Positions 365-14,200 of a stretch of 64,000 nucleotides of DNA are shown piece after piece. Position 1 is the stretch's first letter; the number at the start of each line of letters is the position of its first letter. The notes beneath the pieces were generated by a model. It did not search any database. It had not been told where the DNA came from and was given only the letters and a program-made list of their open reading frames with translations. The translations under genes were made by a program, and so were the position numbers. The stretch is from positions 725-64,724 of the forward strand of contig DATJHM010000048.1 in NCBI GenBank assembly GCA_035493895.1, given 5' to 3'. This stretch comes from Ktedonobacteraceae bacterium. GTDB lineage: Bacteria; Chloroflexota; Ktedonobacteria; Ktedonobacterales; Ktedonobacteraceae.

Positions 365-1975
365 TTAAGAACAGCCAAGCTGCAATAATTGTTCACTGCA
401 ACAATACGTGGAGCTTGGTGCCGCAGGCGTTTGCGCGTTGACATAGTGGTGAGAAAAGATGTCTGCATACATCTTTGCAACCATCGGACCAACGTCGAGC
501 CCTCCATCGCCACCATTCTCTTTCATCGCTACGATGGTCAGATCCGGCAGCTGATTGGGATTGCTTATGGAGTAGGGGGCCTGCGTGATCATCCACGCAT
601 TGGCGGCGGGAGTTCCATTCGTGCTGACCTGACCGGTGCCGGTCTTGCCAATAATTCCCCACGGCGAGTTGTAGAGATCGGGCACAATCGAACCTGAACC
701 ACAGCGCGCTACCCCGTACATCGCCTGACGCACTTCCGTTGCCGTCTGCTGGCTCACAGGCGAGCTGAGCTCCTGAGGCGTGAAGGACTGAACAACGCTG
801 TTGCTTTTATCGGTGATTTTCGAGATCAGTGTTGGTCGCATCAGCCGTCCATTATCGGCGGCGACGTTATTAATCAGGGCCATCTGCAATGGGGTCACGT
901 TATCGTAGCCCTGACCGAAGGCATCCTCCGCCAGCGCATTGTCGGCCAGCGACTGATTATTTTTCAGCACGGTGCTGGTGGCAACAGGCAGATCAAAAGG
1001 AATTTTCTGGCTGAGATACAGACGTTTCGCGTAATTAAGCCAGGTCTGCTGCCCGATATTGACCCCGATCTGGCCATAAATCAGGTTGTCCGAGTGGGTA
1101 TAGCCATATTCGGTCGAAACCGGGAAATGGAATGTATAGCCTTGAATATTATTGCCAATAATTTGCTGACCATCAATGTAGAGGGGACCCATGGCATGCT
1201 GCTGGTCAAATCCCTGGTTCAGCGTCGTTTTGCCACTATTCAGGCCCGCCATCAACGTTACCGTTTTAAAGACTGATCCCGGGATAAAGAGCCCCTGGGT
1301 AGGACGTTCCAGGAGCGGCTGTTCTGTATCATTTGCCTCCTGATTGTAGTAGGCAAGATTATTGACGTTGAGCTGGTTCACAAGCGTATTGGGATTGAAC
1401 GTAGGACGGCTCACCATTGCCAGAATTGCCCCTGTCTGTGGGTCCATGACGATAACCGCCCCACGATCGCTTTGAAAGGTATTGTCATTATCGATCTTTA
1501 CGTAGGTATCGAAATCCTGGTTGACTATTTTCTGAATGCGCTCATCTATGGTCAGATAGAGCGAATCTCCTACTGGTGGCTGATGAAGCGTTTGATTCAC
1601 CAGGTTTTCCAGGCTGCTCGTTCCTACCTGCCCGGTGAGGTAGTTATTATACTGCTGTTCTATGCCTGTTGAACTATATTGGGTGCCAGCATAATACCCG
1701 ATGAGTCCGGCCAGGGATGGATCGGTATAGCGGCGAACATAGCCACATCCTGTCCCCGTATCTGTAGGGACCGATTCTGCCAGCAGCACGCCATTGCGGT
1801 CATAAATCTTCCCGCGCACAGGCACGTTAGCCGGAAGGCAAGAACGAAGATTGTGAATATTACTGGTCACCTGCTGTGCCACTACGACTTGCCAGTAGAC
1901 AAGACCTGCACTGGCGGCAATGAAGAAGGCAACAAATAATATGGCCAGTTTGCGTATATTTGAGGCAATATTCAT
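365..1975 (-). CDS. penicillin-binding protein 2 / FtsI-type peptidoglycan D,D-transpeptidase
   Basis: 536 aa with an N-terminal TM helix and the transpeptidase motifs SVFK (SxxK), SDN (SxN) and KTGTG (KTG). ATG start at 1975. Confidence 0.9.
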   Translation of the reverse strand: MNIASNIRKLAILFVAFFIAASAGLVYWQVVVAQQVTSNIHNLRSCLPANVPVRGKIYDRNGVLLAESVPTDTGTGCGYVRRYTDPSLAGLIGYYAGTQYSSTGIEQQYNNYLTGQVGTSSLENLVNQTLHQPPVGDSLYLTIDERIQKIVNQDFDTYVKIDNDNTFQSDRGAVIVMDPQTGAILAMVSRPTFNPNTLVNQLNVNNLAYYNQEANDTEQPLLERPTQGLFIPGSVFKTVTLMAGLNSGKTTLNQGFDQQHAMGPLYIDGQQIIGNNIQGYTFHFPVSTEYGYTHSDNLIYGQIGVNIGQQTWLNYAKRLYLSQKIPFDLPVATSTVLKNNQSLADNALAEDAFGQGYDNVTPLQMALINNVAADNGRLMRPTLISKITDKSNSVVQSFTPQELSSPVSQQTATEVRQAMYGVARCGSGSIVPDLYNSPWGIIGKTGTGQVSTNGTPAANAWMITQAPYSISNPNQLPDLTIVAMKENGGDGGLDVGPMVAKMYADIFSHHYVNAQTPAAPSSTYCCSEQLLQLGCS

Positions 1976-2249
1976 GTGACTGCTCGATTTCTATTGTCTG
2001 ATGCCAAGAAGAACCTGGAGAGATATTTGAGCTCCTTCTCAGTAGTGTGATCTTTTCTCTTGTAACTATACCATGTCTACTATTATTATTCCAATGGATG
2101 TGACTGGCATTGATCATATCAGGAAATACTACATATAATGTAAAATTATGCAATATTTTAAATATTTTACGCTTTTGGCTCTGGAGCCGCTCAAGCATAA
2201 GAAGCTTCGCCTTACGAATATTGTGCCTGAATTTGAGGCACAATGAGCA

Positions 2250-2300
2250 TTGACAACGAATCGTATCTCAACTATATTACGTGCATCGGATTTATCCGAT
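2250..2300 (+). promoter_or_regulatory. Cassette 1 promoter plus 5' leader hairpin
   Basis: TTGACA (2250-2255), a 17-nt spacer and TATATT (2273-2278). The hairpin ATCGGA-TTTA-TCCGAT (2285-2300) starts 7 nt after the -10. The same layout occurs in 5 copies. Confidence 0.7.
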
Positions 2301-2304
2301 CAGC

Positions 2305-2377
2305 TCAGGCGTAGCTCAGATGGTAGAGTGTCTGCCTGTCACGCAGAAAGTCGCAGGTTCGAATCCTGCCGCCCTGA
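2305..2377 (+). tRNA. tRNA-like module 1 of cassette 1 (Asp-type GUC anticodon arm, non-canonical acceptor)
   Basis: D arm TAGCTCAGATGGTAGAGT, anticodon arm TCTGC-CTGTCAC-GCAGA (identical to bacterial tRNA-Asp) and T arm GCAGG-TTCGAAT-CCTGC. The acceptor strands TCAGGCG / CGCCCTGA pair only with a bulged C, and the helix extends into leader and trailer. Confidence 0.55.
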
Positions 2378-2386
2378 ACTGTCGGT

Positions 2387-2460
2387 GGGGGCGTGGTGCA
2401 GCGTAAGCATTGTACCTCCAACTTGTACAGGACGCCGGGTTGAACTCCTGGCCGCCTCCA
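2387..2460 (+). ncRNA. tRNA-like module 2 of cassette 1 (Ala-type acceptor G3:U70/A73, 9-nt anticodon loop CTCCAACTT)
   Basis: Invariant GGGGGCGTGGTGCAGCG ... CGCCTCCA. T arm GCCGGG-TTGAACT-CCTGGC (6 bp) and anticodon arm TGTAC-CTCCAACTT-GTACA. Confidence 0.55.
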
Positions 2461-2525
2461 CATCCTGTCCTATCCCCTGGTCTGCGTTGAAGCGATTAGT
2501 ATCTGAGAGATAGATAGATATAAGT

Positions 2526-4487
2526 ATGCCCGATGAGATAGTATCACCGGCTCTTTTCACGGAAGCCGCCAACATGGATACGTTCCCGGCGCGGCTCACT
2601 GCTCTGGCGCGTTTTGCTGCCCTCCAACCCCTGATCGCGGCGAACCCGGCAACGCCGCCCACAACCTTAGAGCAGCTCAGTACGTCCACCGATCCTGGCA
2701 TACGGCGCGCAGTGGCTCAGAATCCCAATGCATCCGTACAGACGTTGTGCCGTCTGGCAGGCGAATTTCCCCAGGAATTTTTGCACAATCCCATTATTCC
2801 CCTCCTGAGCATGACCCGGCCTGCCTTTGTCAAAGATCTTCCTCTCCTTTCCTGGGCAAGCCTGCTCAGATTCGAAAATCTCTCTCGCTCGTGGCTGCAA
2901 CAAATCGTGACGGATAAGAGCTATGAGCGCAATCGGTCTCCTATCTTGCGGCTGGTGCAGTTGCATGTGACCCAGGCAGGCAAAAAGCCCGAAGCATGGC
3001 GATTTGAGGCGACGCACGCGTTGCGGGCATATCGACAAATAGGGAAGTTTCAGCAAACGGTGGGATATCAACCAAAAGCTACTCCCCTTGCTTCCATTCA
3101 TCAACAGGCTGAGATAGATATATTTCTCTTGTTGGCTCTGCTGTGCCCTCAATGTGCCCCGATGTTGAAAGAGCAATGGACCAATGTTGTACACACATCG
3201 CCTGATCGTATCGTGGGCGCGCTATCTTCGTCTCTGGCGATAAGCAGTAAAACGCTGTCTTTGCTCTCGTTTGAACGCAATGTGCCCGTACTCTGCCAGG
3301 TAGCTCGTCATCCGCGCACACCCGCGAATGTTCTGGTGCACCTCGCAGGTCGTCGTCTTTCATGGGAAGTGCGGTGCGCCGTCGCCAGCAATCCGCATAC
3401 TCCATTGGAGAATGTCTATCGGCTGCTGTCTGACAGCAAGCGTGTGGTGCGCCGGGCTGCTGTCTCGCATCCCGCTCTCACGCAACAGGACTACGAAATT
3501 CTTGCTCTCGATCAGGAGACCTCAGTACGTGCTGCTCTTGCCAGAGTGCCCCGGATCGGACTCGATTTGTTGAGCCAGCTGGCCCGTGACCCCGCGCCAG
3601 CCGTACGAGCCGCCGTTGCCCGCAATGTGAAAATCAACGTGGAGACTCTTACCACATTAGCACATGATCCCGAGCCAGTAGTGCGCGCTGCGGCCGCCGC
3701 CAACTCGCGTCTTCCGGGCGAGATACAGAGCATGCTGGCTACCGATCCTGAAGTTGCTGTGCGCGCCGGAGTGAGCGGGAATGCACGTTTACCTGAGTCG
3801 TGCTTTGCCGTGCTCGTGCAAGATCCCTCGCCGCTCGTGCGTAAACAGCTCGCCGCCAATTCGCGCCTGCCCGTCCAGCATCTCGAAACACTCTGGCGAA
3901 CGGGCAATGCGGAGGTCTGGCAGGGGGTCGCACGCCATCCTCAGACCGCTCCAGAACTGCTGACACAACTGGCGCAACAGGGCGATGCACGTGTGCGCGC
4001 AGCCGTTGCCGCTCACAGGCAGACGCCGCTCGAAGTGCTCTATGCCCTGGAGCAGGAAAATGTACGCGAGATCTGGCAGGGTCTGGCTATGAACCCGAAC
4101 GCGCCGCTTGACATCCTGGAACGTGCGCTTGCTACACCGTATACCGATCTCTGGTATCGCCTCTTCAACCATCCGACGATGCTGCGCAATCAGCGTCGTC
4201 CCTATCTCACGCTGCTCGCGAGCAAGCTCCAGCAACTTATGGTTGCAAACAGCTTTCCGAACTGGCTGCGAAAAGTCGTATTCCAATATTACACCTCATT
4301 TCCCGCAACCATCATGGAGCCGTTTGCTAGCTCTCCTCACTGGGAAGAGCGCTACCTTGCAGCTCGCCATCCGCAAATAGCAGAATCGCTCCTTGATACA
4401 CTTGCTCACGATGGCATCTGTTATGTCCAGGCCGGTGCACAGGACGCATTGCAACAGCGCAAACTCTCTCATAATCTGAAGCATTGA
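2526..4487 (+). CDS. leucine-rich-repeat-variant (LRV) / HEAT-like repeat protein
   Basis: 653 aa with many roughly 24-aa repeats of the form LAxDPxPxVRxAVAxNxxxP (for example LARDPAPAVRAAVARNV, LAHDPEPVVRAAAAANSRLP, LATDPEVAVRAGVSGNARLP). ATG at 2526. The TGA stop lies inside the next cassette's -35. Confidence 0.8.
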   Translation: MPDEIVSPALFTEAANMDTFPARLTALARFAALQPLIAANPATPPTTLEQLSTSTDPGIRRAVAQNPNASVQTLCRLAGEFPQEFLHNPIIPLLSMTRPAFVKDLPLLSWASLLRFENLSRSWLQQIVTDKSYERNRSPILRLVQLHVTQAGKKPEAWRFEATHALRAYRQIGKFQQTVGYQPKATPLASIHQQAEIDIFLLLALLCPQCAPMLKEQWTNVVHTSPDRIVGALSSSLAISSKTLSLLSFERNVPVLCQVARHPRTPANVLVHLAGRRLSWEVRCAVASNPHTPLENVYRLLSDSKRVVRRAAVSHPALTQQDYEILALDQETSVRAALARVPRIGLDLLSQLARDPAPAVRAAVARNVKINVETLTTLAHDPEPVVRAAAAANSRLPGEIQSMLATDPEVAVRAGVSGNARLPESCFAVLVQDPSPLVRKQLAANSRLPVQHLETLWRTGNAEVWQGVARHPQTAPELLTQLAQQGDARVRAAVAAHRQTPLEVLYALEQENVREIWQGLAMNPNAPLDILERALATPYTDLWYRLFNHPTMLRNQRRPYLTLLASKLQQLMVANSFPNWLRKVVFQYYTSFPATIMEPFASSPHWEERYLAARHPQIAESLLDTLAHDGICYVQAGAQDALQQRKLSHNLKH

Positions 4488-4534
4488 CAGCGAATGTGCT
4501 CTCGATTATAGTAATGCCATCGACTTTGTTCGAT
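4484..4534 (+). promoter_or_regulatory. Cassette 2 promoter plus 5' leader hairpin
   Basis: TTGACA (4484-4489, overlapping the stop codon at 4485-4487), a 17-nt spacer, TATAGT (4507-4512) and the hairpin ATCGA-CTTTGT-TCGAT (4519-4534). Confidence 0.65.
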
Positions 4535-4538
4535 CGGT

Positions 4539-4611
4539 GCGGGTGTAGCTCAGATGGTAGAGCATTGGTTGGCTAAACCGAAGATTGCAGGTTCGAGTCC
4601 TGCCCACTCTG
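4539..4611 (+). ncRNA. tRNA-like module 1 of cassette 2 (GCU in anticodon position, short variable loop, no U33)
   Basis: D arm TAGCTCAGATGGTAGAGC, anticodon arm TTGGT-TGGCTAA-ACCGA and T arm GCAGG-TTCGAGT-CCTGC. The acceptor region pairs only as a bulged extended helix (GGTGCGGGTG with CACTC-T-GCGC). Confidence 0.5.
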
Positions 4612-4620
4612 CGCTGTTGT

Positions 4621-4692
4621 GGGGGCGTGGTGCAGCGGCAGCATCGTGCACGCAAAGCACGGGAGGCCGGGTTCGATCCCCGGTCGCCTCCA
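4621..4692 (+). tRNA. tRNA-like module 2 of cassette 2 (Ala-type acceptor, GCA in anticodon position, 7-nt loop ACGCAAA)
   Basis: This is the only copy with a 5-bp anticodon stem (CGTGC/GCACG) and a 7-nt loop. Position 33 is C, not U. Acceptor GGGGGCG/CGCCTCC plus A73, and T arm GCCGGG-TTCGATC-CCCGGT. Confidence 0.55.
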
Positions 4693-4727
4693 CATTCTTC
4701 CTATTCTCCCCCTTTTTTTGCCCCGTT

Positions 4728-4757
4728 TTGGGATAGAGACGTTCGTTTTGGTATGAT
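4728..4757 (+). promoter_or_regulatory. Possible secondary promoter upstream of the kinase gene
   Basis: TTGGGA (4728-4733), an 18-nt spacer and TGG-TATGAT (extended -10, 4749-4757). Confidence 0.3.
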
Positions 4758-4933
4758 AGAGATGGGTCTCAGAGGGACTTTTTCGTCTCTCGCCCGTATA
4801 TCATAAAGATGACCTATCGTTGGCTCGATAGTGTGCACATTCAACCCCGCAACAATACGTATGCTCTTTCCGTTTGTTCGCTGTTGCTGAAAATGGAAAG
4901 AGGAATGGCAAAAAATCTCTGGAGAGGCTGCAT

Positions 4934-6952
4934 ATGGTTGATTACATAGGACGACAGCTTGGCAATTATCGCCTTACCCGTCTTTTAGGCAAAGGCAGTT
5001 TTGCGCAGGTCTATCTTGGGGAGCATATCTATCTTGGTACTCCGGCGGCGATGAAGGTGCTCAGCACGCAGATGGCGGACGATCTGGATGTGTTTCGCAC
5101 AGAAGCTCGTACTATCGCTCGTCTGATTCATCCCAATATTGTGCGCGTGCTGGAATTTGGCGTGGAAGGCACCATTCCGTTTCTGGTGCTGGACTATGCG
5201 CCCAATGGAACGCTTCGTCAGTACTACCCCAAAGGCGTGCCTCTCCCCTTGCCAACGGTGGTCTCCTATGTGAAACAGATCGCTGAGGCATTAGCGTATG
5301 CCCACGGTGAAAAGTTGATTCACCGGGATGTGAAGCCGGAAAATATCCTCCTGGGAAGAAATAACGAGTTGCTTCTGAGCGACTTTGGGATCGCTCTGAT
5401 GGCGCAGACGATGCACGATCAGAATATGCAGAATGTGGCGGGTACGCTGGCCTATATGGCCCCTGAACAAATCCAGGGCAATCCGCGTCAGGCCAGCGAT
5501 CAGTATTCATTGGGCATCATTGTCTATGAGTGGCTGACTGGCGAACGTCCCTTCAATGGCTCGTTCAACGAGATAATCTCGCAGCAGCTCTCTGTTCTCC
5601 CTCGTCCCTTGCGCGCAAAGGTTCCGACGATTGCCCCGGCCGTTGAACAGGTGGTGTTGATGGCCCTGGAGAAGAATCCTGATCGACGCTTTAACAACAT
5701 CCGCGCATTTGCCTTTGCCCTGGAGCTGGCGAGCCAGCTCAATGCGTCTGCCTCTGACGTCGCCGGTAAGCCTGCCGGAGTTGGCGAGATCTCCCCCTCC
5801 TTCAGCAAGCCCCAGGGCGATGAAAGAGCCGCGATTGCGCCGACGATTCTCCCATCTCCAGCGCCTGTATCGCCAGCAAACAATGCCGCGCCTCCGACGA
5901 TCCTTCCACCCCCTGAACTCCTATCGCCAGCGAAAAGTGAAGGCCCTGTTGTGCGCCCTGTCGCACCCCCGCCATCAGTACCCACGCCGCAAACAAAACC
6001 CGCGGGAACGCTCGTCTCCAGTTATCAGGGACATCCGAACGAAGTATGTTCTTTATCGTGGTTCTCCGGTGGCGTGCGCATTGTGTCGGTAAGCAATGAT
6101 AAAAGTGTGCATGTCTGGGATGCTATGACGGGCAAGCAGTTCCAGATCTACCAGGATATCGCTGATGCCGTGGGTGTCATCGCAGGCTCACCTGATGGCT
6201 CACGTATTGCCACTGCCGGATCTGATGCCCAGGTGCGGATCTGGGATTTTGCCACGAATCGTCTGGTAACCACATATCGTGGTCATGTCGGAAGCACCAT
6301 TAACGCAATCGCCTGGTCGCCAACGCAGCAGCAGCTCGCTTCCGCCGCTGCTGACGGCACCGTACACGTCTGGGATGCGACGACGGGGCAGACGCTCACC
6401 ATCTATCGTGGTCATACCGGCAGCGTCAATATGCTGGCGTGGTCGCCCGATGATCCTTCGTCGGCGCGTATCGTTTCCGGTGGCGACGATGCGTCAGTGC
6501 AGACCTGGAATGCCTCCACTGGCAGAAGTATTGCGCTCCACCGCAGCCAGGGGGCGAAGGTCATGAGTGTCGCATGGTCGCCGGAGGTATATCCCATGTC
6601 TCTCCAGACGAGCTACTCGGCAAGCATGCCCACGAAGGTTCCCAATAGTGCCCGGGTCGCGTGCGGGAGAGCAGACGGAACGGTACAGATGTGGGATACC
6701 ACCACAGATCGCGAAGTATTAAGCTACCGCTACAATGCCCCTCTCTCCGTCGTCGCATGGTCGCCGGATGGGAGGCGTTTCGCCTATGCCAGCGAAAACA
6801 AGACAGTAGAGGTGTGGGACACCATGACGAATCTCAAACTGGTAACCTTCTCCCATGCCGCTCCAACCCGCGTCATGGCCTGGTCCCCCGACGGAAAATA
6901 CATTGCCTCTGGCGGTGGCGATGCAACGATACAAGTCTGGGTTGCCCCATAA
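4934..6952 (+). CDS. Ser/Thr protein kinase with C-terminal WD40 beta-propeller
   Basis: Kinase motifs GKGSFAQV, HRDVKPENILL, DFGIA and APE. A Pro-rich linker is followed by at least 7 WD repeats (VHVWDA, VRIWDF, VQTWNA, VQMWDT, VEVWDT, IQVWV). The ATG at 4934 is preceded by GGAGAGG. The ORF track's TTG at 4874 is less likely. Confidence 0.9.
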   Translation: MVDYIGRQLGNYRLTRLLGKGSFAQVYLGEHIYLGTPAAMKVLSTQMADDLDVFRTEARTIARLIHPNIVRVLEFGVEGTIPFLVLDYAPNGTLRQYYPKGVPLPLPTVVSYVKQIAEALAYAHGEKLIHRDVKPENILLGRNNELLLSDFGIALMAQTMHDQNMQNVAGTLAYMAPEQIQGNPRQASDQYSLGIIVYEWLTGERPFNGSFNEIISQQLSVLPRPLRAKVPTIAPAVEQVVLMALEKNPDRRFNNIRAFAFALELASQLNASASDVAGKPAGVGEISPSFSKPQGDERAAIAPTILPSPAPVSPANNAAPPTILPPPELLSPAKSEGPVVRPVAPPPSVPTPQTKPAGTLVSSYQGHPNEVCSLSWFSGGVRIVSVSNDKSVHVWDAMTGKQFQIYQDIADAVGVIAGSPDGSRIATAGSDAQVRIWDFATNRLVTTYRGHVGSTINAIAWSPTQQQLASAAADGTVHVWDATTGQTLTIYRGHTGSVNMLAWSPDDPSSARIVSGGDDASVQTWNASTGRSIALHRSQGAKVMSVAWSPEVYPMSLQTSYSASMPTKVPNSARVACGRADGTVQMWDTTTDREVLSYRYNAPLSVVAWSPDGRRFAYASENKTVEVWDTMTNLKLVTFSHAAPTRVMAWSPDGKYIASGGGDATIQVWVAP

Positions 6953-6962
6953 GCGCTCATCA

Positions 6963-6996
6963 GTAGGGACGCCATGGAGGCACGGAATGGCGTCCG
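6963..6996. repeat. REP-like element, family a (GTAG head plus hairpin GGACGCCAT...ATGGCGTCC)
   Basis: The 36-mer CAGTAGGGACGCCATGGAGGCACGGAATGGCGTCCG is repeated identically at 27910-27945 and 28686-28721. This copy sits 10 nt after the kinase stop and may double as a terminator. Confidence 0.75.
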
Positions 6997-7079
6997 GGTA
7001 GCCAACGAATTCTCAGGCACCGAAGACGAGAGCAGCAACAAAAAACCAGCCGAATCGCAGCCCAGAAGCCCAATGAGCA

Positions 7080-7130
7080 TTGACAATAAATCTAAACTCA
7101 ACTATATTGCATACATCGGATTCGTTCGAT
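7080..7130 (+). promoter_or_regulatory. Cassette 3 promoter plus 5' leader hairpin
   Basis: TTGACA (7080-7085), a 17-nt spacer, TATATT (7103-7108) and the hairpin ATCGGA-TTCG-TTCGAT (7115-7130). Confidence 0.7.
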
Positions 7131-7134
7131 CGGC

Positions 7135-7208
7135 GCAGGTGTAGCGTAGTGGCCTAACGCAGCTGTATATCCCGCAGGAGATCTCAGGTTCGAATCCTGT
7201 CGCCTGTG
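7135..7208 (+). ncRNA. tRNA-like module 1 of cassette 3 (AUC in anticodon position)
   Basis: Acceptor GCAGGTG/CGCCTGT (two G-U pairs), extended to 11 bp with leader and trailer. D arm GCGT-AGTGGCCTA-ACGC, anticodon loop ATATCCC and T arm (T)CAGG-TTCGAAT-CCTG(T). Confidence 0.5.
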
Positions 7209-7217
7209 TCGCATAGT

Positions 7218-7291
7218 GGGGGCGTGGTGCAGCGTCAACACAGTACATCCAATTGGTACATGACGCCGGGTTCAACTCCCGGTCGCCTCCA
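7218..7291 (+). ncRNA. tRNA-like module 2 of cassette 3 (Ala-type acceptor, 9-nt loop ATCCAATTG)
   Basis: Invariant GGGGGCGTGGTGCAGCG ... CGCCTCCA. Anticodon stem GTAC/GTAC and T arm GCCGGG-TTCAACT-CCCGGT. Confidence 0.55.
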
Positions 7292-7344
7292 CAGTTCATC
7301 CATTGCAAAACTCTCCTCATCGCAGCCCAGAAGCACAACAAGCA

Positions 7345-7395
7345 TTGACAATAAATCTAAACTCAACTATATTGCATACATCGGATTCGTCCGAT
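7345..7395 (+). promoter_or_regulatory. Cassette 4 promoter plus 5' leader hairpin
   Basis: TTGACA (7345-7350), a 17-nt spacer, TATATT (7368-7373) and the hairpin ATCGGA-TTCG-TCCGAT (7380-7395). Confidence 0.7.
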
Positions 7396-7399
7396 CAGC

Positions 7400-7472
7400 A
7401 CAGGAGTAGCGTAGATGGTAGCGCGTCTGCTTTGCACGCAGAAGGTCGCAGGTTCGAGTCCTGTCTCTTCGT
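7400..7472 (+). tRNA. tRNA-like module 1 of cassette 4 (Ala-type UGC anticodon arm, non-canonical acceptor)
   Basis: The anticodon arm TCTGC-TTTGCAC-GCAGA is identical to bacterial tRNA-Ala(UGC). D arm GCGT-AGATGGTA-GCGC and T arm GCAGG-TTCGAGT-CCTGT. The acceptor ACAGGAG / CTCTT-C-GT pairs only with a bulged C and continues 4 more bp. Confidence 0.55.
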
Positions 7473-7481
7473 GCTGTCAGT

Positions 7482-7554
7482 GGGGGCGTGGTGCAGCGTG
7501 AGCATCGTGCAGCCAAAAGCACAGGACATCAGGTTCAACTCCTGGTCGCCTCCA
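7482..7554 (+). ncRNA. tRNA-like module 2 of cassette 4 (Ala-type acceptor, 8-nt loop AGCCAAAA)
   Basis: Invariant GGGGGCGTGGTGCAGCG ... CGCCTCCA. Anticodon stem GTGC/GCAC and T arm ATCAGG-TTCAACT-CCTGGT. Confidence 0.55.
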
Positions 7555-7607
7555 CACTTCATCCACCGCAAAACTCCCCTCGTGCCACCTCAGAAGCGCA
7601 ATGAGCA

Positions 7608-7658
7608 TTGACAACGCTTTTCCCCTCAACTATATTACATGCATCGACTTTGTTCGAT
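7608..7658 (+). promoter_or_regulatory. Cassette 5 promoter plus 5' leader hairpin
   Basis: TTGACA (7608-7613), a 17-nt spacer, TATATT (7631-7636) and the hairpin ATCGA-CTTTGT-TCGAT (7643-7658). Confidence 0.7.
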
Positions 7659-7662
7659 CGGC

Positions 7663-7736
7663 GTGGGAGTAGCTCGGGTGCTAGAGCGCCTCCTTGCCAA
7701 GGAGAGAGGTCGCAGGTTCGAGCCCTGCACACTCAA
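7663..7736 (+). tRNA. tRNA-like module 1 of cassette 5 (Gly-type GCC anticodon arm, degenerate acceptor)
   Basis: The anticodon loop TTGCCAA is identical to bacterial tRNA-Gly(GCC). D arm GCTC-GGGTGCTA-GAGC and T arm GCAGG-TTCGAGC-CCTGC. The 5' GTGGGAG pairs with the trailer only through an internal loop. Confidence 0.5.
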
Positions 7737-7745
7737 CGTCGTCGT

Positions 7746-7818
7746 GGGGGCGTGGTGCAGCGAAAGCATAGTACGCTCATTAGTACAGGACATCAGGTTC
7801 AACTCCTGGTCGCCTCCA
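7746..7818 (+). ncRNA. tRNA-like module 2 of cassette 5 (Ala-type acceptor, 8-nt loop GCTCATTA)
   Basis: Invariant GGGGGCGTGGTGCAGCG ... CGCCTCCA. Anticodon stem GTAC/GTAC and T arm ATCAGG-TTCAACT-CCTGGT. Confidence 0.55.
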
Positions 7819-7916
7819 CATTCACCCGAATATCTTATGGCCATTTATCCCCGCATTCTTGCCAGACCGATCTTGCAGAGATTTCAGCCAATAAAAAAAG
7901 AATTGAGTGGACTATC

Positions 7917-8951
7917 ATGACGCCAGAAGCTCTCTCAAGTTTTTTGCATAAGCTCGTCGAACATCGTCTGATGTTCAGTACTATGATCTGGGGCGCGCCG
8001 GGCATCGGCAAATCGAGCATTGTCGCGCAGACTGCGGCTGCCTACGAGATGGAGATGATCGATCTTCGCCTCTCACAACTGGCCCCGACGGATCTGCGCG
8101 GCTTGCCCGTGGCTGACAATGGTGTCTCGCGCTGGTATCCGCCCGAATTTTTGCCGCGTGAAGGCAAGGGCATTCTCTTTCTCGACGAATTGAATCTCGC
8201 TCCTCCCGCGATGCAGGGGATGGCGCAACAGTTGATTCTGGATCGCCGCGTCGGGAACTATACGGTTCCCCGGGATTGGTTTGTCTGGGCCGCAGGCAAT
8301 CGCAAAGAAGATCGTGCCGCCGTGTTCGACATGCCCGCGCCACTCGCCAACCGCTTCATCCATCTCACGGTCGAGGCGCACTTTGACAGCTTCAAATCCT
8401 ACGCCCTCGGACAGCACATTCACGAGCACATCCTGGCGTTTCTCTCTTTCCGTCCCGCATTGCTACATAAGCTCGATCCACAGCAGCCTGCCTGGCCTTC
8501 GCCTCGCTCGTGGATGATTGCCAATCGTCTATACAAAGTGGGCCTGGATATCTCGCATGTGGTCGGCCAGGGCGTTGCCGCAGAGTTTGCCGCTTTTCTC
8601 AAGCTCTATCAACAGTTGCCCAATGTCACTGAGATTTTGCAGGGAAACGGCGACAAGATTGGCTTCCCCGATGAGCCATCGCAGCGTTACGCCCTGACCG
8701 TTGCTCTGACTATGCGCGCCACTTCTCTGCAAGAAAGCTATCTGGCATTTCAATGGATGGCTGCGCATGCCGGACACGAATGGATACAGCTCTTTGCTAC
8801 CGATCTCTTCCGTCAGGCTCGCGCACGCAACGAACTGGGACGTCTGGCGACACTGGTGCAGCGCGATAAACGCTTACAGCAAATGTTCATTGAATACATG
8901 AAGTTGCTGGAGGAGCCCGACGCGTTGGAGGAAGCCGATGAGCAAGAATGA
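7917..8951 (+). CDS. MoxR-like AAA+ ATPase (AAA_5 type)
   Basis: Walker A GAPGIGKS, Walker B ILFLDELN, and AAGNRKEDRAAVFDMPAPLANRF. The likely start is the ATG at 7917 (MTPEALSS...). The ORF-track start at 7608 reads through cassette 5 and is rejected. Confidence 0.85.
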   Translation: MTPEALSSFLHKLVEHRLMFSTMIWGAPGIGKSSIVAQTAAAYEMEMIDLRLSQLAPTDLRGLPVADNGVSRWYPPEFLPREGKGILFLDELNLAPPAMQGMAQQLILDRRVGNYTVPRDWFVWAAGNRKEDRAAVFDMPAPLANRFIHLTVEAHFDSFKSYALGQHIHEHILAFLSFRPALLHKLDPQQPAWPSPRSWMIANRLYKVGLDISHVVGQGVAAEFAAFLKLYQQLPNVTEILQGNGDKIGFPDEPSQRYALTVALTMRATSLQESYLAFQWMAAHAGHEWIQLFATDLFRQARARNELGRLATLVQRDKRLQQMFIEYMKLLEEPDALEEADEQE

Positions 8952-10068
8952 TGCTTTTCAGCGCCAGATTTCCGCCGCGATCATTCAGTTGCGCCTGCAT
9001 TCGCCGTTCTTTGCAACGCTCGCGCTGTTCGCCAGGATTATTCCCACGCAAAACTATCCCACGGCGGCAACCGATGGACGCGATGTCTTTATCAATCCAG
9101 ATTTCTGGCGCGACCTGACGACCGCTGAGCGCCTGGGCTTGCTCGCTCACGAAGTACTGCACGCCGCGCTCCTCCACGTGCCGCGCCTGGGCCGACGCCA
9201 TCCCTTAACCTGGAATATTGCAGCCGATATTGTGGTCAATGGCATCATTCTTGCTCAGGATGGTTTTGCGCTGCCGAAGGGGCATCTGCGCTATGCGCAG
9301 CTTGAACAACTGAGTGTGGAGGAAATTTATCATCAGATCCAGGCAAATGCCGACGTACGCAAGCTTTTGCTTCCTCTGTTTGCCGATCTGCTGTTGCCCA
9401 CAGAAGGACTCTCTCCCGACCAGTATGCCGAACTTGAGCAGCACTGGAGGCAGGCCTTACGCCAGGCCGAAACGCTGGTCGAAGTGCTGGGACATGGCAC
9501 GCTGCCAGCAGGCTTGCGGCGCGAAATGACCCATCTCAGCCCCTCTCAACTGGATTGGCGAGCCTATCTCTGGCGCTTCCTGGTGCAAACTCCGACCGAT
9601 TTTGAGGGCTTCGATCGTCGCTTTGTGGGTCAGGGACTCTATCTGGACGCGCTCGCGGGGGAGAAACTGCGCGTCTTTGTGGCGGTCGATACCAGCGGCT
9701 CTATTGGCAGTAAAGAGATTGCGCAGTTTCTCGGCGAGGTGCAGGCCATCCTGGGTGCCTATCCACATCTGGAGGCCATCCTCTATTATGCAGATGCTGC
9801 CTGCTATGGTCCCTATGAGCTGACCCCTAACTCAGAGCTTCCCCCTCCGGTGGGTGGCGGCGGCACCGATTTTCGTCCGTTCTTTGCGGCCGTTGAGACG
9901 ACCCTCGATGCTTCGTCTCATGGCATCTGCATCTATCTGACCGATGGCTATGGTACCTTTCCCAGCGTACCACCCTCATTGCCCGTGCTCTGGGTCCTCT
10001 CTCCCGGCGGGATAAGCATCGAATATGTGCCATTTGGGGAAGCGGTACGCCTGATTCCCGACGTGTGA
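8938..10068 (+). CDS. vWA-like domain protein with N-terminal HExxH metallopeptidase-like domain (DUF2201-type partner of MoxR ATPases)
   Basis: HEVLH zinc-binding motif and a MIDAS-like VAVDTSGSI. The start overlaps the ATPase stop by 14 nt, which suggests an operon. Confidence 0.8.
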   Translation: MSKNDAFQRQISAAIIQLRLHSPFFATLALFARIIPTQNYPTAATDGRDVFINPDFWRDLTTAERLGLLAHEVLHAALLHVPRLGRRHPLTWNIAADIVVNGIILAQDGFALPKGHLRYAQLEQLSVEEIYHQIQANADVRKLLLPLFADLLLPTEGLSPDQYAELEQHWRQALRQAETLVEVLGHGTLPAGLRREMTHLSPSQLDWRAYLWRFLVQTPTDFEGFDRRFVGQGLYLDALAGEKLRVFVAVDTSGSIGSKEIAQFLGEVQAILGAYPHLEAILYYADAACYGPYELTPNSELPPPVGGGGTDFRPFFAAVETTLDASSHGICIYLTDGYGTFPSVPPSLPVLWVLSPGGISIEYVPFGEAVRLIPDV

Positions 10069-10101
10069 CCTGCGCGCCTCGCTTTCCCGATCTGTTTTGT
10101 A

Positions 10102-10431
10102 TTAGCGGTTCCGTTCGCTACGTACGAAGACTGTCGTCTCGATAGAGAGAAAGAGCACGAACAGAATCCCGATGACCAGCAGATTGATGAACGGATTGAG
10201 CAGGACAACCTGAGCGTATTCTGATCTGCCCATATAGAAGATACTACGGACCAGATCGACGGTGTAGCGCATCGGGACAAGCTTCGAGAGGATGTCCAGA
10301 TACCAGGGGAGATTGCGGACCGGCAGAAAGACGTCTGCCAGAAAGAATCGCGGGATGACAGTGAAGTACCCCACGGCTGAAGTTATCAAAATCCATCTAT
10401 TGAAAATCTTGATGTGCTCTTGCTCCTGCAA
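10102..10431 (-). pseudogene. ABC-2 type transporter permease, C-terminal fragment only
   Basis: The 109-aa ORF matches only the last TM segments of ABC-2 permeases (LPVRNLPWYLDILSKLVPMRYTVDLVRSIF). The upstream frame is broken by a stop, and the expected N-terminal part is occupied by repeat family X. Confidence 0.5.
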
Positions 10432-10576
10432 GTGTAGCCGGAGAAAGGATGAGAACCGGCATCATCCCCGCAGATGAGTTACCAGGAACCACATCGGATA
10501 GTAAAAAACGAAAAGATAGACAATGACGTTTGACTAAACAATCCAAATCCCTCTATGGATTGAAAGCATGTACGTC

Positions 10577-10969
10577 CACAAATTCATGCCGAAGAACCAA
10601 TTTCGCCCGAACCCTTCAGAAATTTCATTACCTGTCGAATATCTATAACAGAAGAGGAAAAATCCCTCCCACCCCGTTCTCACAACAACGATGTCGCCTG
10701 AAGAGAGACAGTGCAGCATCCAATAATGGGGGAAAGTGTAGGACTGGCGTAGGGGGCGTGTAGGCGTGAGATTCCCATCACATCGGCATTTGTGTAGGTT
10801 ATGTAGCTTTTTAGAAAAAAATCTCGTAGCGTAAAAAAATCTCGTAGCGCGTCACCAAAAGGATCCCAATTCCCTATCATCTCACCTCTCACCATCTCCT
10901 GTAGCTCTGGTGTCGAGGCGTGTAGGGTCAAGATCGCGATCACATCCACCCTGGTGTAGGATGTGTAGC
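10577..10969 (+). repeat. Repeat family X, copy A (roughly 400-bp non-coding element with multiple TGTAG motifs)
   Basis: Shares about 80-85% identity by eye with 28240-28542 (same orientation) and 53627-54067 (inverted). It contains a 17-nt tandem repeat, AAAAAAATCTCGTAGCG x2, at 10815-10849. Confidence 0.75.
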
Positions 10970-11052
10970 CCTGTAACAACTTGTCATAACGAATCCACCC
11001 ATTGGCCCGGAGAACCCATACCGGCATCGACACGCGTCGCGCCCCCGCAGAG

Positions 11053-11098
11053 GTAGGGATCGGGCTTTATGCCGATCCGCGAGCCCCCCGGCCATCGC
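11053..11098. repeat. REP-like element, family b (GTAGGGATCGGGCTTTATGCCGATCC) plus a CCCCCGGCCATC box
   Basis: A GTAG head is followed by an imperfect palindrome. The same architecture recurs at 16600-17120. Confidence 0.65.
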
Positions 11099-11205
11099 GC
11101 GCGACAAATCTGTTGAAAACGAAACAAAAATCTATATTTCACTATATTTTCTAAAACTAACTGCTAATACGTTTGATACAGAAATAGGTACATAGTATTA
11201 GTTTC

Positions 11206-11234
11206 TGTACAAAAATGAATAATATCCCTATAAT
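11206..11234 (+). promoter_or_regulatory. Possible promoter of the 1714-aa gene, inside an AT-rich leader
   Basis: TGTACA (11206-11211), a 17-nt spacer and TATAAT (11229-11234). GGAGG at 11271-11275 lies 9 nt before the ATG. Confidence 0.35.
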
Positions 11235-11284
11235 AAGTGGATATTGCCCCTGTCTATCAGTAACCCATCAGGAGGACGTCCTTT

Positions 11285-14200
11285 ATGTTATCGTGCTGGA
11301 ACTGCCACGCGGTATTACCAGAGGGAGCAAAATTTTGTGGACGCTGTGGAAATAAACAAGACACGGCAGCGTCTGTTCTACCATCTTCTCTTCTTACCGT
11401 TCCCCACTCTACTCAACTTGTAGCAACGGACCTTGTGCATCATGATCAACCTGTCGCAACGGACCTGCATCATGATCACTCTGCCGCTCCCACTTTTACC
11501 ATCTACTCGGCCGTTTTGCCGATCAAAACCTGGCTTGCAGAACATCGCGCGACCATTGCCGCAAAACTTTTGACGGTCCTTGTGTATGTCAATACCAGGC
11601 GCAATGAAAACAGAGAGCTTTTTGAAACCAATAGCGGAAGAGAAACTCCTCCGCTCGAAGATCGTTCCTGGGACAAAGTTGCCTTTATTGCCGGGCTGTA
11701 TGCTCGCTTTATGTGGCGCTATGAGTTGAACGCCGAACAGAAACGCAATCTCTGGGATGCCTTGTGCTGGTCCGTGCTCTATGAACGAGCTTTGCGCCCG
11801 AAGATGGCTGATGCCCGCTTTGCCGAACTGGTTGGCTTTTTTAATGGCTGCGCCGGGGATAGCGAATTCTTCGCCTATATGCTCCTGAGCATGCCGCTCT
11901 TACTTGAATATGTTGATACTTCCAATATCCACAAACTCCTGACCGCCAGTGAACGTCTGGGCAACTCATCGGATGTCGTGCATCTGCGCGCATTACTTCA
12001 CCAACGCCTCGTTATGCCTGCCGATGTGGATCTGGAGTCAACTCAATTGACGGTGCTGGCCGATCAGCCCGGCCCGAGACGTGAGTGGGCGCGTATCATT
12101 CTGGCTATTGAACATCTCTGGCAGTTTTTAGACAAAAAACGCGAGAGCAGTAATCAGCGCGCGCTGACCTTTGCCCGCGAAAATCCCATGGACTCGACCA
12201 CTCCTTCGCAACTGGCAACGCTGGGCGGGGTGATTTGTCGCAATGTCGTCTTTCGCTATGCTCACAATAGTACGTTACCTGGCAGCATGCTGACTGCTGA
12301 ACAATTGGCGGACGCCATCGCGCTGGCGGAATACTCGATACGCTATAGTTCAGGTGATTATATTGGTAAGGCCGAATATTATTATCTGCTCTTGAGCAGC
12401 TTACGCGATCTGCGGACACATGTACTCTCGGCCGATGTGCTCGTGAGCGCGCTGAAACGCCAGTTCGCACCCGAGGGATTGGCCCGAATATCGGAATTCT
12501 CCTGGTCCGATCTCCTCGGCATCGTGACGCGCTACCTGAGCGAGTGTCGTCTGGCGGAAACCATTGATGTGGTGGAGGTGGAGTCCTGGATACGCGCTCT
12601 GGCTGATCTTGCTCCTCAGTTTCAACTGGAGGCGCGCAAGGTGTTTGTGAGTGAGGTGCGCCAGCATGGCGTGCGCGACAGTATGGCTTTGCGTGCTTTG
12701 CAGGGCGAGTCATTGGAAATGGTCAGTGAAACACATGACAGGGGGCCACTGGCGTTTCTCGGACAGGAGCGCTACAAAGAGCTGCTGACCTGTATTCGTA
12801 CCTCTCGTCTGGATCGTCTGGGCGAAATTCTGCGTGAGGCGCGCCCGAAACTTTTCGCCGAACTGAGCCGTCTATTGACCGATCAGAAGTTTGCGGAGAT
12901 TCTCCCGCCCCGACGCTCATTGCGCATACGTGGTCGCAATGCCAATGCTCTCGATCGCTTTCAGGAGGCAAAAACGCTTATTCAGAGCGAGAATGTCGCC
13001 GAGCAACAGGAGGGACTTGCTCTCTTCGAGCGAGCTCAGGCTGATACTGCCCGCGAATATCAGCCCGTTGCACGCGAATGGCGTCTGTTCGCGATTGCCT
13101 GCGTCCGGGCGCGCTATCAGGCGGTCCCGCTGTGGGAAGAGGATCGCTGCAAGGGCGTTGCGTCCTGGGAGGAGATCTGGAATCTGGCCGTCTTCTATGT
13201 TCATGTTGGCAAGATCGATCAGGCGTTGGAATTGCTGGTGCCCGGCGTTGAGCGGCAGCGAGCCCCTTTCTCGCATCTGCGTTTTGCCCTCTATTGCAGC
13301 GTGCAGATTCTCGGACAGGGGTCACATTCGCAACACGAGAGCATCGAAGCCGCCGAAACGTTTCTTATGGAGCATCTGAAACAGTATCCCTTGCCGGAAT
13401 GCTATCTGGCATGGTCTTTATTGGTCAGTGAACGCGAGAGTGTTGATCGAGCGCAAAGTACAAACAATATGATGAAGCAACTGACGATCCTGACCAAATT
13501 TAACGAGTTGCTTGACCATCCCATCCTTATCCTGAAGCCAGAGGAGTCGGTCAGCGATTCTGCCCTGGAGACATTTGAAAAAGAACTCCGTCGCCTCGAT
13601 CTGGACGATGTCTGGCGTTTCTGGATTCACGACTATGCCCAACGCAACCGCTATAAATTCAGTGCCTGGCAGGCGCTGAGCGATGCGTACGAGCGCGCGG
13701 GCGAAAGTACCGGAGCTGAAAAGTCCCTGAAACATGTTGCAGATACGCAGCTTGATATGTATCTGAAGCAGCGCGAGAAAAGTAGTGCTGTTGTCTCTAA
13801 TCTGCTGCATCTGCGCAATCATCTATGTAAGTTGTTCGATTTTTATCAACGTCAGGGCCGTTTATTGGACGATGATGTCTTTGCCCGCTTTAAGCACTAT
13901 CGCACGACTGTCCCCGAACTATGGCATGAACGGGAGAGTGCGAATACGAAGTTGATCAAGCAGACACGTCCTCTGCTGGAGAAACTGGGGCGAACAGGCA
14001 GCACAAACGAGTCTTCTGCAACTCAAGCCCCACAGAAAGCCTGGTATGCGCTCGCTTCGGAGCTTACGACTGTCCAGGAAATCGCCACTCTGAAGAGCTT
14101 GCAGGCGCGCATACATACCCATGTCCATCTTCTGACGGATGCGCAAAAGCAGGGTCAGGACGATGTTGCGGGCGTCCTATCGCTGCTGGATGATCTCTGC

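Follow-up and report, generated by a model that had tools for sequence, protein, structure and literature searches.

The stretch analysed here, called the window below, comprises 64,000 nt of contig DATJHM010000048.1 from a Ktedonobacteraceae bacterium. Between 2250 and 7820 it carries five copies of a cassette made of a promoter, a 5' hairpin (P1) and two tandem tRNA-like modules (M1 and M2), set among genes for an LRV-repeat protein, a Ser/Thr kinase-WD40 protein, an AAA_5 ATPase and a DUF2201 protein (Table 1). A regular-expression check located all five cassettes, every one on the + strand and at the place given by an initial annotation made from the sequence alone. Their layout is identical: TTGACA, 17 nt, TATATT (TATAGT in copy 2), 6 nt and ATCGNN-N4-NNCGAT, so that P1 begins at the 7th base past the -10, exactly as had been described. 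GGGGGCG is found at offset 137 or 138 from the -35 in all copies, which agrees with the position proposed for M2, and the 15 nt reported between the M1 T stem and GTGGGGGCG are exact in all five. Every window cassette ends in CCTCCACA. The 17-mer GGGGGCGTGGTGCAGCG, suggested at the outset as a probe, was found five times where 0.2 occurrences were expected, also when 3 mismatches were tolerated, and is absent from the rest of the window. The promoters match the sigma-70 consensus at 11/12 positions and are the sole matches of that quality within 1900-11400. Overall identity of the five copies is 80%; no variation is seen in promoter hexamers, hairpin stem or M2 scaffold, and the stems carry compensatory changes, in line with the initial view that these parts are copied faithfully and that other segments differ.

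The predicted cassette RNA is ca. 177 nt long and consists of P1, M1 (a tRNA-shaped four-way junction closed by a helix, P2), a 3-nt linker, and M2 (a second tRNA-shaped junction, closed by another helix, P3). P1 is a 5-6-bp hairpin at the predicted +1. P2 follows directly and is a 10-12-bp helix, often with one bulged base, made from the 5' and 3' flanks of M1; pairing between cognate flanks amounts to -14.5 kcal/mol versus -8.9 for non-cognate ones. M1 itself has canonical D, anticodon and T arms, the T stem being of 5 bp. P3 is a 9-bp helix in which the 7-bp acceptor is prolonged by pairs -1:73 and -2:74, and these additional pairs covary, most copies having GU..AC and others GCA..UGC or GGU..GCC. 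M2 continues with a D stem of 4 bp and a 7-nt D loop devoid of the usual GG, a hairpin that across copies has 4-7 bp and a loop of 3-9 nt (commonly N-N-C-A-N-A), a 5-nt variable region and a 6-bp T stem. The hairpin is missing altogether in the copies L006 5918 and L039 7384 (L-numbers denote loci collected outside the window). Since the outermost pair of the M2 T stem covaries (AU 17, GC 13, GU 9), the acceptor/T stack of this module is 7/6, i.e., 13 bp. Two points of the initial annotation were corrected: its M2 "anticodon arm" is a 4-5-bp hairpin, with a loop of 7-9 nt in the window copies and of 4-9 nt across relatives, and the two tandem modules are not free tRNAs, each being closed by pairing between its 5' and 3' flanks.

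Covariation was assessed with RNAalifold and pair counting over 41 pairs in 40 copies, with 500 shuffles. Paired cells made up 96.4% of the total, compared to 82.1% in column shuffles and ca. 44% when partners were slid; changes on both sides were seen in 32 of the 41 pairs, and not one of the 500 shuffles reached the observed value by any measure. Single-sequence folds of the window copies gave the same architecture (z about -2). Decay without structural constraint, which had been contemplated initially, is contradicted by this covariation in a conserved family. In the more distant copies L005, L039 and L040, M1 carries D and T arms that are M2-like, which suggests that M1 and M2 arose by tandem duplication. 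We also considered a conserved P2 bulge as a Ro-like site, an idea that was dropped because many copies have a perfect helix and the position of the bulge varies.

Relatives were sought in several ways, a search of related genomes having been proposed already with the initial annotation. An exact-pattern scan of one genome per species returned 22 loci, among which the true relatives were Ktedonospora formicarum (a single M2 pattern match in the genome) and three metagenome-assembled genomes, all of them Ktedonobacteria-type Chloroflexota. Sixteen of the 22 were rejected as chance matches in GC-rich coding DNA, and two from Planctomycetales as a separate, unrelated tRNA-like gene. With a degenerate M2 pattern, matches came from 14 soil-metagenome contigs, one of which (L032) is identical to window cassette 1, and viral contigs gave none. 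A homology search showed the window LRV protein to be 100% identical to VL485_04650 of a Ktedonobacteraceae metagenome-assembled genome. Phage relatives were discarded as well, blastn against a phage collection giving generic tRNA similarity only. A covariance model built from 30 copies recovered the five window cassettes and 43 non-redundant full-length copies in other loci (42 of them score 96-181 bits, and one, which is degenerate, 79.7 bits), including those of Dictyobacter aurantiacus, Ktedonobacteria strain brp13 and two more distant loci. All 43 fall in Ktedonobacteria or close Chloroflexota and show the covariation described above, and in nearly all of them TTGACA-N17-TATAGT stands at an unchanged distance. 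As a family they are linked to one gene cluster. Diversified copies occur in arrays of 2-4, each under its own promoter. Within a locus the copies diverge as much as between organisms or loci, so the paralogues are old or diversifying rather than recent duplicates. Judged by sequence, the cassettes are a new, structurally constrained, lineage-restricted family of predicted twin tRNA-like RNA genes.

ARAGORN called M1 in all five window cassettes (anticodons GTC, GCT, ATC, TGC and GCC) and M2 in only one. With the Rfam tRNA model (RF00005) M1 scored 58.7, 53.4, 42.2 (partial), 41.6 and 33.2 bits, one copy being aligned over model positions 7-64 only. M2 reached 30.9 and 27.3 bits in two window copies (threshold 29); in the other three there was no RF00005 match, only weak, sub-threshold hits to tRNA-Sec or mascRNA, the latter because of shape. 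Independent housekeeping tRNA genes, against which the initial annotation had already argued, would not give this picture: only M1 scores as tRNA, and M2, at 31 bits or less, lies at or below the threshold, so the ten modules are not all ordinary high-scoring tRNAs. Neither module has the canonical 7-bp acceptor with unpaired discriminator and 3' end. A 7-nt anticodon loop on a 5-bp stem is present in about two thirds of the M1 copies and not in M2, and anticodon-matched identity elements are absent from M1, which has one acceptor type for all anticodons. Besides the called modules there are no further tRNAs in the window, and no tmRNA was called by ARAGORN there or in the related loci. The YrlA model gave 17.4 bits on the cassettes against a threshold of 69. 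Even at permissive thresholds Rfam returned only tRNA plus sub-threshold tRNA-Sec, mascRNA and YrlA hits. Rfam 15 has no family matching the twin cassette, and the RNA is not described in the literature searched on tRNA-like RNAs, LRV, DUF2201 and vWA-MoxR conflict systems, all of which sustains the first impression that it matches no described RNA family.

The two modules evolve in very different manners. Identity between loci is 0.83 for the acceptor plus D arm of M2 and 0.77 for its T arm, against 0.61 for the M1 T arm, 0.42 for the M1 anticodon arm and 0.41-0.52 for the P2 strands. The M2 acceptor reads G1-C72, G2-C71 (39/40), G3·U70 (38/40, the other two being A-U) and G4-C69 (40/40), pairs that are the bacterial alanine identity pairs (PMC9976931). 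Position 73 is mostly A (UA in 32/40 at -1:73), and CCA is not encoded after M2, where ACA, UGC or GCC is found instead. M1 shows at least 15 different anticodon triplets, and most of its loops are whole 7-nt loops. Among them, CUGUCAC, UUUGCAC, UUGCCAA, UUGCAAA and CUGCGGA equal the usual loops of tRNA-Asp, Ala, Gly, Cys and Arg, and CUUCUAA, CUCCAAA, CUCAUAA and UUCACAA those of tRNA-Arg, Trp, Met and Val, including the right bases at positions 37 and 38. As a whole, the M1 anticodon stem-loops resemble those of real tRNAs for Asp, Gly, Ala, Cys, Glu, Arg, Met, Trp and Val. The M1 copies with GCU ("Ser") lack a long variable arm, and those with GCC lack the Gly acceptor set G1-C72/C2-G71/U73. 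As the rest of M1 is independent of the anticodon, M1 mimics anticodon arms on a common scaffold and is not an isoacceptor set.

A side observation concerns the M2 acceptor. In about nine copies its 3' strand reads (G/A)UCACCUCC, the anti-Shine-Dalgarno end of 16S rRNA (it is GAUCACCUCC, e.g., in L029, L023 and L039), and one of the A3-U70 copies (L011:1031-1102) has GGAGGUG, a perfect Shine-Dalgarno sequence, as its 5' strand. This may be a coincidence with tRNA-Ala-like sequence or a hint of ribosome/Shine-Dalgarno mimicry.

Clustering of open reading frames, Pfam and annotated contigs gave a conserved order around the cassettes: often a gene for a PD-(D/E)xK (DUF6602) nuclease fused to an SDR domain (nuclease-SDR gene, ca. 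600 aa), cassette(s), an LRV gene (ca. 650 aa), cassette(s), an AAA_5 ATPase gene (ca. 340 aa; best solved relative midasin) and, last, a gene for a DUF2201_N (HExxH) plus DUF2201 VWA protein. Cluster genes were present at 18 of the 19 non-redundant outside loci, although these had been retrieved by M2 alone. The order is shared by D. aurantiacus, strain brp13 and the two more distant loci. In L039 two cassettes stand ahead of a translationally coupled LRV-AAA-DUF2201 operon, and in the window three precede the ATPase gene, the kinase-WD40 gene being inserted after cassette 2. The nuclease-SDR gene was rejected as an obligate partner, being absent from the window and from L039. The single locus without cluster genes, L023, is a region ridden with insertion sequences (IS), and there the 5' hairpin segment AGCGCCAGCGGAGCAATCTGCTCGGT is tandemly duplicated before the cassette (L023:3540-3600) among IS240, IS110 and IS66 transposase genes.

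Table 1. Cassettes and neighbouring genes, in window coordinates.
Feature	Position	Strand	Remarks
Cassette 1, promoter TTGACA-N17-TATATT	2250..2278	+	11/12 sigma-70 consensus
Cassette 1, P1 (2285-2300) and M1 closed by P2 (2301-2381)	2285..2381	+	loop CUGUCAC, anticodon GUC
Cassette 1, M2	2385..2461	+	9-bp closing stem GU-GGGGGCG/CGCCUCC-AC, D arm, variable hairpin, 6-bp T stem
LRV-repeat alpha-solenoid protein, 653 aa, pI 9.5	2526..4487	+	conserved gene downstream of cassette 1
Cassette 2, promoter TTGACA-N17-TATAGT	4484..4512	+	
Cassette 2, P1 and M1	4519..4615	+	loop UGGCUAA, anticodon GCU; without long variable arm
Cassette 2, M2	4619..4693	+	sole M2 called by ARAGORN, as "Cys GCA"
Ser/Thr kinase-WD40 gene	4934..6952	+	lineage-specific insertion between cassettes, outside the conserved cluster
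Cassette 3, promoter	7080..7108	+	
Cassette 3, P1 and M1	7115..7212	+	non-canonical loop UAUAUCC; perfect 11-bp P2
Cassette 3, M2	7216..7292	+	
Cassette 4, promoter	7345..7373	+	
Cassette 4, P1 and M1	7380..7476	+	loop UUUGCAC, anticodon UGC
Cassette 4, M2	7480..7555	+	
Cassette 5, promoter	7608..7636	+	
Cassette 5, P1 and M1	7643..7740	+	loop UUGCCAA, anticodon GCC
Cassette 5, M2	7744..7819	+	
AAA_5 (midasin/MoxR-like) ATPase	7917..8951	+	conserved gene downstream of cassettes 3-5
DUF2201_N (HExxH metallopeptidase-like) plus DUF2201 VWA-like protein	8938..10068	+	conserved partner of the ATPase

All cassettes run in the same direction as a gene and stand immediately before a gene or a further cassette. 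In the window no terminator was found behind any of them, the distance to the following start codon is 64 nt for cassette 1, 240 nt for cassette 2 and 97 nt for cassette 5, and the LRV and ATPase genes have no comparable promoter in front of them; given the lack of terminators and of other promoters, the cluster genes are probably transcribed through the cassettes. Elsewhere, a U-tract directly follows P3 in 15 of 42 copies, which looks like a leaky intrinsic terminator and would suit a discrete RNA product. The predicted +1 coincides with the first base of the hairpin, and P1 would protect the triphosphate 5' end.

Our preferred explanation, put forward tentatively, is that the cassette RNA mimics tRNA without taking part in decoding, M2 serving as a constant handle and M1 as a bait that diversifies, and that the cluster genes also receive their promoter and leader from the cassette. 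Transcription would begin at the 5'-terminal hairpin, driven by the near-consensus sigma-70 promoter, and each cassette would yield a stable, non-decoding twin tRNA-like RNA of ca. 177 nt. M2 would be the handle for a constant partner, which may be the basic LRV solenoid, or alanyl-tRNA synthetase (AlaRS) and tRNA-processing enzymes, and M1, diversifying as it does, would be bait or decoy to factors recognising anticodon arms. The cluster mRNA would come from this same transcript, through read-through or after 3' cleavage behind M2.

The alternative that survives best is that the cassette acts only in cis, as a promoter plus leader similar to a "t-element", in which the 5' hairpin and the tRNA shapes lend the transcript stability, a cut by RNase P/Z sets the 5' end and half-life of the mRNA, and the excised RNA has no function of its own. 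We consider this possible, if rather unlikely. It accounts well for the position and orientation of the cassettes, for the window, where the LRV and AAA genes have no other strong promoter and no terminator intervenes, and for the two cassettes that head the coupled operon of L039. However, nucleases that read shape need neither a near-invariant M2 sequence nor a preserved G·U wobble, and a U-tract after P3, as in 15 of the 42 copies, would stop transcription before the gene. Moreover, pairing between leader and trailer, which here closes both cloverleaves, disfavours RNase P cleavage. Such an element also leaves unexplained why there are diversified arrays of 2-4 copies with their own maximal promoters, and why M1 has canonical anticodon-loop signatures. 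The near invariance of M2 and its kept wobble, together with the individually promoted and diversified arrays, the U-tracts and the authentic anticodon loops, argue for the tRNA mimic over an element acting in cis only.

Several observations weigh against the tRNA mimic. The LRV-AAA_5-DUF2201 triad is also found in the cyanobacterium Calothrix sp. NIES-4071 (L041:1-10604), with several extra LRV paralogues, and that locus has no cassette and no tRNA; the proteins, and hence the triad, do not need the cassette RNA. As a protein module the triad is older and more widespread than the RNA. In addition, unrelated genes also stand behind cassettes (kinase-WD40 in the window, DUF3052/EamA in L036), which a plain promoter-plus-leader role fits equally well. 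Both facts, the cassette-free triad of cyanobacteria and the cassettes before unrelated inserted genes, argue for action in cis only. None of the cluster proteins has a recognised RNA-binding domain. The LRV protein was modelled with confidence as a long alpha-solenoid (pLDDT 92.7), but the model resembles only generic HEAT scaffolds (TM about 0.25) and 1LRV. PADLOC has no model for LRV, AAA_5 or DUF2201, and its generic models were matched only by the non-conserved kinase and by the nuclease domain. No cognate-specific complementarity was found among the M1, M2 and P1 loops and the 110 nt downstream, on which ground kissing-loop and riboregulator ideas were rejected. Finally, the ends of the cassette RNA are predicted from sequence, and the likeness of M1 loops to those of real tRNAs refers to tRNAs in general and not to the tRNA set of these genomes.

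A more specific version of the tRNA mimic is that the cassette RNA is the sensing or decoy subunit of a ribonucleoprotein system, in which M2 would sit on the LRV solenoid, the M1 repertoire would be bait for tRNA-targeting enzymes (anticodon nucleases or modification enzymes of phages or competitors), and damage or occupancy of the bait would be read by the AAA_5/VWA-peptidase pair. We regard it as decidedly doubtful. If true, this would be a host-encoded, diversifying "tRNA decoy array".

It is improbable, in our opinion, that M2 is freed from the transcript, receives a CCA end and is alanylated by AlaRS, becoming a non-ribosomal alanine carrier or a titrator of AlaRS or the tRNA-Ala pathway. 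The alanine identity pairs are indeed conserved in 95-100% of the copies and A73 in most of them, U at -1 is the usual context for RNase P, and the 7/6 arrangement gives a 13-bp stack, the length found in tRNA-Sec, which with the missing anticodon would exclude M2 from translation. Against charging, positions 73 and 74 pair and covary with -1 and -2, so that no free 3' end is available in the transcript; ACA, UGC or GCC stands in place of an encoded CCA, two copies have A3-U70, and the cluster has no aminoacyl-transferase of the Fem, MprF, CDPS or L/F type.

An unusual operon of ordinary tRNA genes for normal isoacceptors is very improbable, in spite of the 33-59 bits of M1 with the Rfam tRNA model and the anticodons assigned by ARAGORN, since M2 stays at or below 31 bits and either lacks the arm or has a loop of 4-9 nt, the M1 acceptors are often bulged, extend into 10-12-bp helices and are of the same type for every anticodon, the "Ser" copies have no long arm, and the units are confined to one gene cluster, with a single M2 match in the K. 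formicarum genome. Equally hard to sustain is a view of the cassettes as repeats in decay, be they tRNA pseudogenes, remnants of integration sites or a selfish mobile repeat derived from a tRNA: although IS and IscB elements adjoin some copies and foreign genes have entered between cassettes, full-length copies whose consensus promoters are intact are spread across genera at a fixed position in the cluster, with compensatory changes in all helices and a within-locus divergence that equals the one between species.

Several known systems share traits with the cassettes. YrlA and its partner Rsr/Ro60 have in common with them a non-decoding RNA, a tRNA-like module closed by a long helix and an operon with protein partners, and the cassette cluster supplies an alpha-solenoid and a VWA/MIDAS domain, both building blocks of Ro60. 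However, in the cassette cluster the solenoid and the VWA domain are separate proteins accompanied by an AAA_5 ATPase, no TROVE domain was detected by Pfam, and the RNA, far below the YrlA threshold, comprises two full cloverleaves, with an acceptor of alanine type and anticodon arms that have diversified. The possibility that the LRV protein forms a TROVE-like ring was rejected, as it is an open HEAT-like solenoid with weak matches to the PP2A A subunit and 1LRV.

The nearest published case are the polycistrons of irregular, allo-tRNA-like sequences in Acidobacteria, tandem non-canonical tRNA-like genes, some with G3:U70 and odd anticodons, that lie near conflict-type genes and for which a role in regulation, not translation, was suspected (Mukai et al., 2017; PMC5389517). 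The cassettes resemble them in being tandem and non-canonical. Those sequences have 8/4 or 9/3 acceptor/T arrangements, long variable arms, free acceptor ends and toxin-antitoxin neighbours, whereas the cassettes have 7/6 (M2) and 11/5 (M1), closed ends, a fixed spacing of promoter and hairpin and a different gene cluster. Allo-tRNAs proper, with a 12-bp branch split 8/4 or 9/3 and a long variable arm, also differ from M2 (7/6, 13 bp, 5-nt variable region). Plant mitochondrial t-elements and MALAT1 mascRNA are likewise tRNA-shaped and co-transcribed, with ends that RNase P/Z could define, but they are single, have no promoter of their own, no conserved identity set and no diversified anticodon arms, and are not bacterial. 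The tRNA-like domain of tmRNA shares the alanine-type acceptor (G3·U70, A73) and a tRNA-like body without anticodon; the cassette RNA differs in lacking a tag reading frame, in an acceptor that is not made from the RNA termini and in having a D stem. Along similar lines, the ToxI arrays of type III toxin-antitoxin systems combine a strong promoter, a tandem structured RNA, sometimes a leaky terminator, and a protein gene, but cassette units are 5 times longer, tRNA-shaped and individually promoted, and there is no ToxN/AbiE-type toxin in the cluster.

Some further observations were made around the cassettes. Foreign genes lie between them at L020:4968-6281 (a GDSL lipase-ricin lectin) and L036:6899-9441 (DUF3052, an EamA transporter and a double-TIR protein), and tandem cassettes seem to be a hot spot of insertion or recombination at three loci (the window, L020 and L036). 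An IscB element (RRXRR+HNH reading frame; in L006 with a HEARO/omega RNA at 96 bits) occupies precisely the space between a cassette and the cluster gene behind it at two independent loci, L006:1731-3336 (- strand) and L027:856-2172, and the 3' flank of the cassette may be a preferred site for its insertion. In the window, 1.2 kb downstream of the cluster and outside the conserved set, 11285-16429 (+) codes for a protein of 1714 aa that has a zinc ribbon at its N-terminus, then a STAND-type ATPase region, and at its C-terminus an NYN (PIN-like RNase) domain. The unrelated Planctomycetales gene (L004:177-249; L013:5176-5249, - strand) is a tRNA of 55-58 bits that shares a 5' 14-mer with M2 and joins an alanine-type acceptor (G3:U70 and A73) to a GCG (Arg) anticodon, the L013 copy with C and not U at position 33. 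It directly follows a PLD-like gene in L013, and a similar sequence is found at the end of the upstream gene in L004. By its features, it could be a mistranslating or non-canonical tRNA.

Non-coding RNAs with a tRNA shape were already known in the form of tmRNA, YrlA, viral tRNA-like structures, mascRNA and the allo-tRNA-like polycistrons. What would be new here is the fixed tandem of two closed cloverleaves, a consensus promoter and 5' hairpin belonging to each copy, a constant alanine-type module next to one whose anticodon arm diversifies and yet remains tRNA-authentic, and the strict link to one uncharacterised cluster in developmentally complex soil Chloroflexota. Since there are cultured carriers (D. 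aurantiacus, K. formicarum and strain brp13), the function is directly testable. If real, the cassette RNA would be a further case of tRNA mimicry, as decoy, ribonucleoprotein cofactor or processing signal, as well as a compact natural part combining a promoter with a structured leader, and it would provide the first functional handle on the widespread LRV-AAA_5-DUF2201 triad.

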